This document shows positions 3,071 to 19,169 of a stretch of 64,000 nucleotides of DNA, in pieces. The notes beneath the pieces were generated by a model. That model was given only the letters and a program-made list of their open reading frames with translations. It did not search any database and was not told the DNA's origin. The position numbers were made by a program, and so were the translations under genes. The DNA is from Bacillota bacterium (GTDB taxonomy: Bacteria > Bacillota > SHA-98 > UBA4971): the NCBI GenBank assembly GCA_024653485.1, contig JANLFY010000003.1, positions 112,686 through 176,685 on the forward strand, in the 5' to 3' direction. Each line of letters starts with the position of its first letter. Positions within the stretch are counted from its first letter, which is position 1.

Positions 3071-4455
3071 CTCTGGATGTCCTCCAGCACGCAGGCGACC
3101 ACGTCCGCAAGGAGGGTCGCCGCGCGCTCCGCTTCCTGTCTAGTGTTCTGCTCGCACCCGATCTCGAGGATGACTGCCCTGCTGTGGACGTGCTGGTTCC
3201 ACCTGGCGTCGTCCCGCACGTTGATCCCCCTTGAAAGTCCTGGGTACATCTCATCCATTTTCGCGTTGAGATAATACGCAAACGCCAGGTTTTCGCGCCA
3301 ATTCGGGTGGGGGAGTCCGAAGCGGTCCGTCGTGACCACTATGAACACTCTTGCGGCTTTCTGGCCGTCTATCTCCACTGTGGGCGACGCCGAGATCCCT
3401 GCGGTTCCGGCATCCCGGTGAACGTCGAATACCATCTCTATCGTGGGGTGTTCCTTCAGCACGGAGGAAACCGTCTCATGGGAGTTGATGTACGCCTCCC
3501 TCCACACCGGGTAGTCGTGGATCTTCCGCGAGTGGAGCACTGGGATGCCGTACTTCTCCGAAAGCGCCTTGGCGAGCTCCGCGCCCACAGAGATCACGCC
3601 TTCCTCGCTTCCCCACACGTGATCCGCTCCAGAAGTGAGCCTATATGCTTCCGAACTATGTGAGTGGTAGATGAACACCAGGGGCTTACTGCCCCATCCC
3701 CGCGTCTGGGCTCGCAGCCGCGTAGAGCCGCTTTGGTCCGACGGCAGCGGACGCGGAATCACGACGGCCGGCGGCGCAGGTTCTCGTTGCGGCAATGGCG
3801 CCTCGACCCCTCCCGGCGGATCCTCCGGCGTGGTCCCCTCATCTAGACGGCCGGGCTGTTCCCCGGCAGACGACTGTGTGGGGCTGACTGAGCCTCCCGT
3901 GGGCTCGCTCGTCGCAGTGCTCGCTGAGGGCCTCGCTGCAGGGAGGTACCCGGGAATGCCGACGGAAAGAAACGTCCTTGGGTCCTCGAGGTCCGCCGCG
4001 GAGAGCGTCAGCAACAGGGAGAGGAGGCGTGCAGGCATGGGTCCCGAAGACGTTCTCGTTTCTGTCATCCGGACCCGCGCGAACATGGGAATGGCGGTCT
4101 CAACGAGCCCGTAGGGAGCCATGAAGTCAACCGCGGCCCGGGCCTCTCGAACAAGCCTTCGCTCGCCTTCCACCAGGAATCCGCTGAAAGCAGGGAGGAT
4201 CCCTCCACGCCGCGAGCCAGTCCGGACCTCCAAGAGACCGGCCACACCCATGCCGAGGCCCACGAGGAGGACGGCCAAATAGACAAGCGCGGGCCCCCAC
4301 GGGTTCCTGACAGATTGGAACGGAGAACGGCTCCTGCGCGCGCCCCTGCGAATTCGCCAAGACCACCTGCGGCTCCCCCACACCCATCTCATGTCGACGT
4401 ACCTCCGGCCCGGCAACGGGGACCCTTGCCTGTCCAGTCGGCGGTGGGCGGACAT
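3067..4455 (-). CDS. spoIIP: Stage II sporulation protein P (SpoIIP), cell-wall amidase/peptidase
   Basis: C-terminal domain motifs VFIYHSHSSEAY, HDYPVWREAYINSHETV and VFDVHRD are typical of SpoIIP. The true start is probably an internal M, since the N-terminal ~70 aa of the ORF are R-rich. Located downstream of gpr as in Bacillus. Confidence 0.8.
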   Translation of the reverse strand: MSAHRRLDRQGSPLPGRRYVDMRWVWGSRRWSWRIRRGARRSRSPFQSVRNPWGPALVYLAVLLVGLGMGVAGLLEVRTGSRRGGILPAFSGFLVEGERRLVREARAAVDFMAPYGLVETAIPMFARVRMTETRTSSGPMPARLLSLLLTLSAADLEDPRTFLSVGIPGYLPAARPSASTATSEPTGGSVSPTQSSAGEQPGRLDEGTTPEDPPGGVEAPLPQREPAPPAVVIPRPLPSDQSGSTRLRAQTRGWGSKPLVFIYHSHSSEAYRLTSGADHVWGSEEGVISVGAELAKALSEKYGIPVLHSRKIHDYPVWREAYINSHETVSSVLKEHPTIEMVFDVHRDAGTAGISASPTVEIDGQKAARVFIVVTTDRFGLPHPNWRENLAFAYYLNAKMDEMYPGLSRGINVRDDARWNQHVHSRAVILEIGCEQNTRQEAERAATLLADVVACVLEDIQR

Positions 4456-17115: not shown

Positions 17116-17191
17116 TGGTGGAGACGATGGGAATCGAACCCACGACCTCGTGAATGCCATTCACGCGCTCTCCCAACTGAGCTACGTCCCC
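17116..17191 (-). tRNA. tRNA-Ala (anticodon GGC)
   Basis: Minus-strand 76-nt sequence GGGGACGTAGCTCAGTTGGGAGAGCGCGTGAATGGCATTCACGAGGTCGTGGGTTCGATTCCCATCGTCTCCACCA folds as a cloverleaf. G3:U70 alanine identity pair, anticodon loop AUGGCAU, TΨC loop TTCGATT, encoded CCA. Confidence 0.9.
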
Positions 17192-17260
17192 AGATAGATG
17201 TTCGCGTATTCGATTGCGTCCCTTGGTTCACTGCGATTATAGCAGACCCTCCTGGGCAAG

Positions 17261-17674
17261 TCAAGGCCTACGAGCCTCCCGAGGCTCGGCACGGTCGTCG
17301 CGTGAGCAGCCTTCCTCCGGCACGGCGTCCACGAGCGAGGTTCCCACTACTCTTGCGCCACGGTACAGCCGTTCTAGATCGTAATACTCTCTCTCTTTGG
17401 AATGGAACACGTGGACCACGGTGTCGGCGTAATCCAGGATCACCCAGCCGCCTTCGACGGTCCCTTCCTTGTGCTGAGGAAGCACACCTCGTTCCTTGAG
17501 CTCTTGAAGTATGGCGTCGCAGATGGCCTTCAGCTGCGTTCTCGATGTCCCGCCCGCTATGACGAAGTAATCGGCTATTATCGTGAGATCACGGACATCC
17601 AGCACCAGCACGTCCAGGGCTTTCTTGCCCTCCGCAGCAGCACGCGCTATCTCGGCAATGGCCAGTGGGTCTAT
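17261..17674 (-). CDS. rsfS: Ribosomal silencing factor RsfS (Iojap)
   Basis: LDVLVLDVRDLTIIADYFVIAGGTSRTQLKAI... aligns with RsfS. The conserved N-terminus (PLAIAEIARAAAEGKKALD) continues upstream of the track's GTG with no canonical start. The only RBS-backed candidate is ATA at 17674 with GGAGG 8 nt upstream. Confidence 0.6.
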   Translation of the reverse strand: MDPLAIAEIARAAAEGKKALDVLVLDVRDLTIIADYFVIAGGTSRTQLKAICDAILQELKERGVLPQHKEGTVEGGWVILDYADTVVHVFHSKEREYYDLERLYRGARVVGTSLVDAVPEEGCSRDDRAEPREARRP

Positions 17675-17814
17675 GCCTGCCGCCTCCCATTCGCAAAGGT
17701 TCGGCGAGGAACGTCATGGATTGATCACGCTCACCGCTGTCCCCTGGCTGGCGAAGTCTCGCCTCTACCGAACTTCGCCACCGCCGCCCCTCCCTTGAGG
17801 GCGCACGCAGGCAC

Positions 17815-18072
17815 TCAGTACCTTGCCTGCCGAGGCCTGGCCTCGTTGACTATGATCTGCCTTCCACCGATGTCCGCGCCGTTCATCGCGGCCACAACGC
17901 GCTCCACGTCCTCGTCGTCGACCTCCACGAACCCGAATCCACGCGACCTACCCGTCTCTCTGTCGGTAATCACCCTACTGCCCTTGACCTCCGCCACCGC
18001 CCTGAACGCCTCGGCCAAGTCTTCCTCAGTCAGTGCCCAGGGCAGGTTCCCCACATACAGGGTTTTCGTCAC
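17815..18072 (-). CDS. RRM-type RNA-binding protein (glycine-poor, ~85 aa)
   Basis: VTKTLYVGNLPWALTEEDLAEAFRAVAEVKGSRVITDRETGRSRGFGFVEVDD shows RNP-2 (LYVGNL) and RNP-1 (RGFGFVEV) motifs. GTG start at 18072 with GGAGGTGG RBS. The upstream part of the track ORF is R/S/G-rich non-coding leader. Confidence 0.8.
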   Translation of the reverse strand: MTKTLYVGNLPWALTEEDLAEAFRAVAEVKGSRVITDRETGRSRGFGFVEVDDEDVERVVAAMNGADIGGRQIIVNEARPRQARY

Positions 18073-18102
18073 AGGATACCACCTCCATCTCTTTGTGAAA
18101 GA

Positions 18103-18140
18103 AAAACCAAGGCTGCAAGAGACCTTGGTTCTCAATCCGC
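18103..18140 (-). terminator. Intrinsic terminator/attenuator hairpin immediately upstream of the RRM gene RBS
   Basis: Minus-strand RNA AACCAAGG-UCUCUUGCAG-CCUUGGUU followed by UUUUUCUUU. 8-bp perfect stem plus U-run, 30 nt before the GTG start. Confidence 0.55.
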
Positions 18141-18393
18141 ACACCCTATTCGGATCGTGGCGCGACCTCCTCACCCGTCGGACCAGGCCGCTGTGCTGCG
18201 TACTAGCTCTGACTGCCCCCGATCGGATTCTGCTTACGGAAAGACCTGAACCACGGAAACCCGCAAGACAAGGAAACATAAGTGGGGTTTTCACTTGCCC
18301 ATGCACGCTCGTCCGCGCGTGCGCTCGCGGTTTAAGGCACCGAGCTTGACCTCCAGGCATCGGTTTCGCGGTTTCGTCCGTCTTGCCAGACTT

Positions 18394-18422
18394 ATTATAC
18401 CACCGACTCCGCGGGCTGTAAA
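18394..18422 (-). promoter_or_regulatory. Sigma-A-type promoter: TTTACA-N17-TGgTATAAT (extended -10)
   Basis: Read on minus strand: cgTTTACAgcccgcggagtcggtggTATAATaag. Near-consensus -35 and perfect -10 with TG extension and 17-nt spacer. Lies ~310 nt upstream of the RRM start. Confidence 0.55.
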
Positions 18423-18478
18423 CGCCCATGTCCCGTGGCTTCGCTCCGACGCGCGAGCGGACGGGCTGGTGACGGCGT

Positions 18479-19093
18479 CTAACTCACGTCAGGTGATCGG
18501 TCGGAACGCGTGTAGAGCCCGGTTTTTCGAATGTAGTTCTCCACGCTCTCGGGGAGGAGATAGCGGATGGGATCTCCGTGCTTCACCCTCGCCCTGATGT
18601 CAGTGGATGAGATGGCGAGAGCGGGCACCTCCAGGACGAACACCCCGTGGGTAGAGACTGCACGCGCCCGGCCAAGCTCAGACTCAAGACGGGCAGTGCA
18701 ATACCCTGGCCTTGTCGCAACGATGAAGGCACACATCCTCAGCAGCTCGTGGGCGTCCTTCCACGTGAATATCTCGACTGCAGCGTCTGCTCCCGTGATG
18801 AAGTAGAGTCCCGTGCCAGGCCCGTGCTTCGTCCGGAACTCCTTCACGGTGTCCACGGTGTACGACGGGCCCGGGCGGTCGAGCTCCACCCTGGAGACCT
18901 CGAAGTACGGATTCGTCGCGGTCGCCAGAACGGTCATCATGTACCGATCCCGTCCGGGCGATATGTCCACCCCGCGCTTATGGGGAGGCACGCCGGAAGG
19001 CACGAACACCACCGCGTCAAGGCCGAACTTCACTCTGGCCACCTCCGCGGTCACGAGGTGCCCATGGTGTATCGGATCAAAGGTGCCACCCAT
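18479..19093 (-). CDS. nadD: Nicotinate-nucleotide adenylyltransferase NadD
   Basis: MGGTFDPIHHGHL...GVPPHKR... is the (H/T)xGH nucleotidyltransferase signature. Start taken at the internal M. Confidence 0.85.
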   Translation of the reverse strand: MGGTFDPIHHGHLVTAEVARVKFGLDAVVFVPSGVPPHKRGVDISPGRDRYMMTVLATATNPYFEVSRVELDRPGPSYTVDTVKEFRTKHGPGTGLYFITGADAAVEIFTWKDAHELLRMCAFIVATRPGYCTARLESELGRARAVSTHGVFVLEVPALAISSTDIRARVKHGDPIRYLLPESVENYIRKTGLYTRSDRSPDVS

Positions 19094-19169
19094 GATGCCG
19101 AGTCGCCTCGCTTGGCAGGCGTCCTGCTTGACACAGGCGGCTCCATCCTTCACGACCGGATCCCTCCCG

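Follow-up and report, generated by a model that had tools for sequence, protein, structure and literature searches.

The window analysed here is a 64,000-nt stretch of DNA from a Bacillota bacterium. On its minus strand, a promoter points toward a small gene encoding an RNA-recognition-motif (RRM) protein, but roughly 300 nt and an intrinsic terminator lie between the two. What is the function of a transcribed segment that ends in a terminator immediately before the gene it precedes? The first-pass annotation, made from the sequence alone, had proposed either a riboswitch or attenuator leader controlling the RRM gene, or an independent small RNA. Our comparison of this segment with those of related genomes gives somewhat better than even support to one of these readings, in which the element is a cis-acting 5' leader that would control the RRM gene through transcription attenuation.

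Organization of the locus

Read along the minus strand (18422..18098), the element consists of a promoter and an intrinsic terminator separated by ~290 nt of non-coding sequence; its features are listed in Table 1, where clade A denotes the group of closely related leaders described below. The near-consensus promoter noted at first pass is well founded: TTTACA-17-TGgTATAAT agrees with the sigma-A consensus at 11 of 12 positions and carries the TG extension, shuffles of the region contain 0.4 promoter-like sites on average, the identical promoter is found in the relative L001, and the hexamers are invariant across relatives (alignment A3). The 5' end of the transcript is expected near 18387, ~315 nt upstream of the RRM GTG. 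This codon had been correctly read as the start of the gene, although it is located at 18072 and not at 18071. The product is a canonical single RRM, with PF00076 precomputed in Pfam for the identical protein P0001, and solved RRM domains match it with E values down to 2e-31.

Table 1. Features of the leader and of the RRM gene (window coordinates)
Feature	Sequence	Position	Strand	Basis or remark
Sigma-A type promoter	TTTACA-N17-TGgTATAAT	18394..18422	minus	consensus match and TG extension
5' block	CUGGAGGUCAAGCUCGGUGCCUUAA	18332..18356	minus	conserved in 10/10 clade A leaders
Variable hairpin	GCGCACGC-loop-GCGUGC	18303..18324	minus	kept in subclade A1; different short hairpin in subclade A2
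Putative antiterminator box	CUUGCGGGUUUCCGUGGUUC (YUUGCGGGUUUCCGUGGUUC)	18248..18267	minus	complementary to terminator 5' arm and loop; contains the first UUUCCG repeat
Conserved central domain		18149..18250	minus	RNAalifold consensus fold; alignment A5
Candidate closing helix	UUCAGGUC / GAUCCGAA	18250..18243 / 18156..18149	minus	RNAalifold consensus UUCAGGUC/GAUCUGAA
Predicted hairpin	UUCCG-loop-CAGAA	18241..18228	minus	second UUUCCG repeat; RNAalifold form UUCCG-loop-CGGAA
Predicted hairpin	GCGGCC...GGUCGC	18191..18162	minus	RNAalifold form GCGGCC...GGCCGC
Intrinsic terminator	AACCAAGGU (18130..18122) / loop CUCUUGCA / GCCUUGGUU (18113..18105), then UUUCUUU	18098..18130	minus	sequence reading
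RBS of the RRM gene	GGAGGTGG (also GGAGGUGG)	18079..18086	minus	sequence reading; GGAGGTG invariant in relatives
RRM gene		17815..18072	minus	85 aa, GTG start; controlled gene and proposed effector

The terminator, already described at first pass as a canonical intrinsic one, has that character by sequence, with a 9-bp stem and an 8-nt loop (-10.9 kcal/mol) followed by a U-run, and its hairpin is predicted with a probability of 0.98 in the full-length leader. A simple terminator scanner called the orthologous hairpin of the relative L092 but not that of the window, a miss that we ascribe to extension of the stem through G-U and A-U pairs, which consumes the U-run. The distance from the end of the terminator to the RRM start codon is 26 nt in the window and in every relative, and that to the ribosome-binding site (RBS) is 11–12 nt, a gap too small for a promoter. 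As the U-run ends only 11 nt from the RBS, expression of the RRM gene requires readthrough, and as the gene has no promoter of its own 3' of the terminator, the leader must act in cis. Both termination and readthrough presumably occur at this position.

The part of the leader between the promoter and the box is less uniform. RNAalifold places a small hairpin, CUGG/CCRG, within the 5' block, where the changes among relatives are one-sided only. The same block (CUGGAGGUCAAGC..GGUGCC) contains a GGAGGU that resembles the true RBS 270 nt downstream. Two long-range complementarities had been pointed out at first pass. The CGCACGC...GCGUGC pairing is present as the variable hairpin of Table 1 and is retained in the closest relatives, the other half of the family having a different short hairpin. 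The pairing between GGCAAGAC and GUCUUGCC is real as GCAAGAC/GUCUUGC (7 bp), although the last base is G rather than C. As a structural element, GGCAAGAC/GUCUUGC was rejected, its position being conserved in no relative. The description of the segment as G/R-rich applies mildly, with G at 32% and purines at 53%.

Coding potential and known RNA families

Within the leader no stop codon interrupts the RRM reading frame, which extends upstream to an ATG inside the promoter region and so forms a 204-aa ORF (18429..17815, minus). The leaders of the relatives contain stops in every frame and indels that are not multiples of three, and the variable columns of the leader alignment are distributed over the three codon positions without periodicity (27/24/23). 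A coding function was rejected on the lack of codon periodicity and of a conserved open frame, in line with the earlier remark that the segment is not protein-like. A gene caller could wrongly extend the RRM gene over the leader by way of the 204-aa ORF, which is not conserved in relatives.

Searches against known RNA families agree with the first-pass statement that the segment matches no housekeeping RNA, T-box or known riboswitch. With Rfam 15 at gathering score, a tRNA was the sole match in the whole 64-kb window, and the leaders of six related loci had no match. A permissive cmscan (E<=10) covering both strands of 17950..18550 gave two matches, both to eukaryotic families and both attributable to chance; on the minus strand of the leader, where such a scan had been suggested as a check, no relevant family was found. 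These results exclude the leader as a member of the SRP RNA, RNase P RNA, 6S RNA, tmRNA, T-box, known riboswitch and Chlorobi-RRM families. The T-box model in particular gave no match at E<=10, and the GGAGGUGGUAU near the start codon is the RBS. To look for mimicry of rRNA, the leader was compared with E. coli genomes by blastn, without a match, and a scan of viral contigs with the core pattern found none. Taken over its whole length, the leader has a minimum free energy no better than that of shuffled sequences (z = +0.64); with stability this ordinary, the case for a functional RNA rests on conservation.

Conservation of the leader

A search with the RRM protein, restricted to one genome per species, yielded 80 loci, among which only the two closest (L001 and L002) had a homologous leader. 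Further leaders were obtained by looking up close RRM homologues through a protein search. A scan of metagenomes with the pattern AACCAAGGT-N6-11-CCTTGGTTTT proved too unspecific, giving one distinct new leader (L098, identical to L159) in 120 stretches, the rest being ordinary terminators. Clade A thus assembled contains 10 distinct leaders, the window and nine others, all from uncultured Bacillota and all in the context L21-L27-obg-nadD-[leader]-RRM-rsfS-comEA-comEC.

Within this clade no change is seen in the promoter hexamers, in many blocks of the leader or anywhere in the terminator. Identity to the window is 71–86% for the 175-nt 3' core and 47–70% for the 5' third of the leader, and the central domain is 82% identical by column (alignment A5). 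Fourfold-degenerate sites are identical to the window at 38–48% in nadD and 43–62% in the RRM gene. The core is more conserved than these sites, which indicates purifying selection on it as non-coding sequence. The comparison of the regions upstream of orthologous RRM genes, advised at first pass, thus uncovered a leader conserved at a fixed position with thin covariation, the latter reflecting a collection limited to ten close and three distant sequences.

A covariance model of the core (R1) scored 163–209 bits in every clade A locus and ~22 bits in clade B, a more distant group described below, and had no match in the other 78 RRM loci. In the data collected the leader was never found away from an RRM gene. 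Its distribution, as seen here, appears to be narrow and limited to a few uncultured Bacillota lineages. Judged by its conservation and its absence from Rfam, the leader is an uncatalogued, narrowly distributed RNA family, a predicted terminator/antiterminator leader placed before the gene of an RNA-binding protein.

A conserved box complementary to the terminator

About 120 nt 5' of the terminator lies the box of Table 1, which can pair with the terminator 5' arm and loop. The segment CCGUGGUUC pairs with GAACCAAGG with one mismatch; a small internal loop follows, after which (Y)UUGCGGG pairs with CUUGCA(R). RNAduplex identifies the box as the best partner of the terminator arm and loop in all ten clade A leaders, with duplex energies of -17.2 to -20.9 kcal/mol (about -19.6), as against -10.9 for the terminator hairpin. 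Dinucleotide shuffles of the upstream leader reach -13.6 to -15.5 kcal/mol, which places the natural duplexes at z = -1.8 to -3.5. The complementarity is convincing only when the terminator loop is included, as with the 12-nt arm by itself the duplex does not stand out from shuffles (p about 0.1). The terminator loop, UAUCUUGCAR, is conserved to the same degree as the stem, and pairing with the box accounts for this.

The predicted antiterminator helix contains 15 pairs, and 99.3% of the corresponding alignment cells are paired; when the two strands are slid by 1–3 columns, this value is 21–53%. Its columns are mostly invariant and one pair covaries in clade A, the outermost (column 4/column 170), which is U-A in five leaders, C-G in four and U-G in one. 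The U-A and C-G states both occur in both subclades, which requires at least two independent double changes.

The two pairings were also compared along the transcript. When the folded RNA ends at the terminator loop, the antiterminator is part of the minimum-energy fold in 6 of the 10 leaders; once the 3' arm is included, the terminator wins in 9 of the 10. The two states are close in energy, which fits what a switch requires. The leader thus has the feature expected of an attenuator, a conserved upstream segment whose pairing is mutually exclusive with the terminator 5' half. A consistent partner for the box in the terminator state was sought in the 5' region, the central domain and the GCGGCC apical loop, and none was found; the complementarity between the loop of the GCGGCC hairpin and the box is significant in 3 of the 10 sequences only.

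Folding of the central domain

For the domain between the box and the terminator, RNAalifold proposes a consensus fold that includes the closing helix and the two hairpins of Table 1, together with a small hairpin presenting AGUCAGA. The domain also contains the conserved stretches AGUCAGAGC and GCAGCACAGC. By pair counts, 97% of the positions in this fold are paired and only three pairs differ in both partners. In the closing helix an A-U pair is exchanged for G-C once and pairing is broken twice, one of the breaks lying in the window itself. When single sequences are folded, the terminator and the GCGGCC hairpin are the only elements on which the relatives agree. A hand-built fold for the terminator state, composed of P1a, P1b and three hairpins, is compatible with the alignment, but it shows weak covariation and lies 3–17 kcal/mol (or more) above the minimum; it was rejected as an established fold and kept as a candidate structural model.

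Distant leaders and repeated motifs

Clade B has the gene order proB-proA-nadD-RRM-yqeK-lytR-rsfS-leuS, and one of its members is labelled Syntrophothermus sp. Its leaders are shorter (150–180 nt) and keep the box as UUGC...UUUCC(G/A)UGGUU and the terminator stem AACCAAGGU...CCUUGGUUUUU, the same as in clade A. The segment between them measures 62–67 nt, versus 115–125 nt in clade A, and cannot be aligned between the two clades. At the innermost antiterminator pair, clade A has C-G, whereas B1 has U-A and B2 has U-G. In clade B the extended duplex of the box with the arm and loop is not significant against shuffles (p = 0.3–0.7). That the box and the terminator, and not the intervening domain, are kept across lineages argues against a conserved ligand aptamer and in favour of a trans-acting factor recognizing the single-stranded box.

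Clades C and D have leaders of ~120–150 nt in which a GUGGU(U/C) box is combined with another hairpin 5' of the RBS. Upstream of bacterial RRM genes in general, GTGGTT shows no enrichment: it occurs at 5 of 79 loci, the background being 0.068 per 250 nt. These signals are specific to the nadD-linked lineages. A second motif, UUUYCG, occurs two to three times per leader in clades A and B and in the unalignable clade C, with nominal P values of 0.0002–0.02 for a motif that was defined after viewing clade A. Such repeats fit multi-site binding by a protein.

Proposed mechanism and alternative explanations

In the attenuation model, the strong promoter would start the transcript and the polymerase would reach the RRM RBS only by passing the terminator. 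The nascent box would pair with the terminator 5' arm and loop before the 3' arm is made, thereby excluding the terminator. Occupation of the box would leave the terminator free to form, and RRM expression would fall. The likeliest occupant would be the gene's own product: by attaching to the U/G-rich single-stranded box and to the UUUYCG repeats, the RRM protein would exert negative feedback. The conserved domain that separates the box from the terminator might add to this by refolding, perhaps in response to temperature. The choice of the RRM protein as effector is tentative. The more specific proposal, that the leader is a natural high-affinity target of the single-domain RRM protein, which would bind the UUGCGGGUUUCCGUGGUUC box and the UUUYCG repeats and terminate its own transcription, is more doubtful. 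Of the functions proposed at first pass, the attenuator leader is supported by the conservation of the element 5' of RRM orthologues, the lack of room for an RRM promoter and the competing conserved pairing; the riboswitch receives no specific support, as the corresponding segment is replaced in clade B. Below the attenuation model we rank an RNA thermosensor, then a stand-alone ~290-nt RNA, then a new riboswitch.

A thermosensor comparable to cspA, in which cold would favour the antiterminator or a stabler and better-translated fold with no bound factor, is unlikely, and it would be compatible with attenuation, the two readings not being exclusive. Small RRM proteins are cold-induced in cyanobacteria and Bacteroides, where their long 5' UTRs are suspected thermosensors (PMC13370968), and two alternative states of the leader lie near each other in energy. 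However, the leader matches no cspA-type or other thermoregulator family of Rfam at E<=10, and its repeated motif and conserved box suit a sequence-specific binder at least equally well.

It is rather improbable that the terminated ~290-nt transcript is the functional product, for instance by titrating the RRM protein as a decoy or sponge or by acting as a trans regulator, with readthrough into the RRM gene being incidental. Beside attenuation, however, the terminated RNA might serve as a small RNA in addition. Its own strong promoter, a terminator that is favoured at equilibrium and a sequence conservation of the central domain beyond the need of a simple expression platform would suit such an RNA. 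Yet the element is always accompanied by the RRM gene in the collected data, that gene has no promoter downstream of the terminator, the antiterminator pairing would be purposeless in a stand-alone RNA, and clade B swaps the central domain while retaining the switch.

A further alternative would be an unregulated long 5' UTR, in which a leaky terminator fixes a low level of RRM protein and the sequence is kept for the stability or processing of the RNA. The moderate strength of the terminator, with its 8-nt loop, and the inconsistency of most structure predictions among relatives are as such a UTR would have them, but it is an improbable explanation, as it leaves unaccounted for both the 15-pair complementarity of the box to the arm and loop, with its covarying pair, and the persistence of box and terminator stem across clades despite a different intervening sequence.

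A riboswitch, in which the ~115-nt domain between the box and the terminator would be a metabolite or ion aptamer choosing between the two pairings, is very improbable: a structured domain precedes an expression platform, many invariant nucleotides fall in predicted junctions and loops, and nadD lies nearby (with yqeK in relatives), but clades A and B share the box and terminator and not the domain, the regulated gene encodes an RNA-binding protein rather than an enzyme or a transporter, the domain shows the weak covariation noted above, and no Rfam riboswitch matches.

Relation to known regulatory leaders

The logic proposed for the RRM leader would be the same as that of the TRAP-trp and PyrR-pyr systems of Bacillota, in which the antiterminator forms by default and a protein bound to short repeats overlapping the antiterminator strand frees the terminator. 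Both the protein (an RRM) and the motifs differ, and the regulator here would be the product of the regulated gene. In the latter respect the leader may be likened to those of autoregulated ribosomal-protein operons, where a structured leader allows an RNA-binding protein to repress the operon that encodes it, and its neighbourhood includes the genes of L21, L27, Obg and RsfS; it differs from them in having neither rRNA similarity (to E. coli genomes) nor a match to any ribosomal-protein leader of Rfam.

Chlorobi-RRM elements are short hairpins. The family (RF01697) is a conserved motif found 5' of RRM-domain genes and is listed as likely cis-regulatory and not as a riboswitch (PMC2864571); that it is autoregulated by the encoded RRM protein is our own reading. 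The leader described here likewise lies immediately 5' of an RRM-domain gene, but it is not matched by the covariance model at E<=10, belongs to Bacillota and not to Chlorobi, is longer and contains a predicted terminator/antiterminator switch. In Bacteroides, the RRM-1 proteins encoded by rbpA/B/C have 5' UTRs of 120–155 nt, are cold-induced and undergo negative auto- and cross-regulation partly through the 5' UTR (PMC13370968). Like these genes and E. coli cspA, the RRM gene of the window combines a long leader with a small product of a class of RNA-binding or chaperone proteins linked to cold. The UTRs of those genes measure 120–160 nt, however, and rbp regulation is described as transcriptional and post-transcriptional (PMC13370968), the word "terminator" having no occurrence in the searched text of that paper.

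As an uncatalogued family, the leader is suitable for deposit in Rfam, with a reach limited by its narrow distribution. It supplies a conserved RNA in which a switch can be tested and a binding site is proposed, inside a cluster of ribosome-assembly genes. Small single-domain RRM proteins are widespread in bacteria; to our knowledge, little has been learned of the RNAs they bind or of how they are regulated, recent work in Bacteroides being a first step towards showing cold induction and feedback by way of 5' UTRs, and we know of no earlier defined RRM-dependent attenuator in Bacillota. If the RRM protein binds the leader and thereby terminates its own transcription, the leader would be, as far as we know, the first of this kind, and it would offer a system for asking what bacterial RRMs recognize and how they are tied to the ribosome-assembly genes obg and rsfS.

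Gene neighbourhood

In the window, nadD (19153..18479, minus) precedes the promoter and obg lies further upstream, while rsfS, tRNA-Ala, comEA and comEC are found 3' of the RRM gene. In many Bacillota lineages a small RRM gene is located directly 3' of nadD, and after it come either yqeK (HD domain), lytR and rsfS or rsfS at once, with L21, L27 and obg nearby. This recurrent arrangement suggests that the RRM protein is tied to ribosome assembly or silencing. The nadD-RRM arrangement was observed in the window (17815..19153, minus) and at the loci L003, L004, L006, L007, L017, L090–L095 and L218–L223. The leaders before these nadD-linked RRM genes are unrelated between lineages.

Between the RRM stop codon and rsfS there is a gap of ~200 nt (17612..17814, minus) containing a GGCGAAGU...ACUUCGCC hairpin without a U-run. 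The tRNA-Ala(GGC) gene (17116..17191, minus) directly follows rsfS and has a near-consensus promoter of its own, TTGACT-17-TATAAT preceded by TG (17236..17264, minus); a tRNA is likewise found after rsfS in L001, L088, L090 and L218. Finally, the contig of L221, which also carries a clade D RRM locus, contains a c-di-AMP riboswitch (RF00379, 62.6 bits; 4098..4228, plus) 5' of a glycosyl hydrolase family 18 gene.
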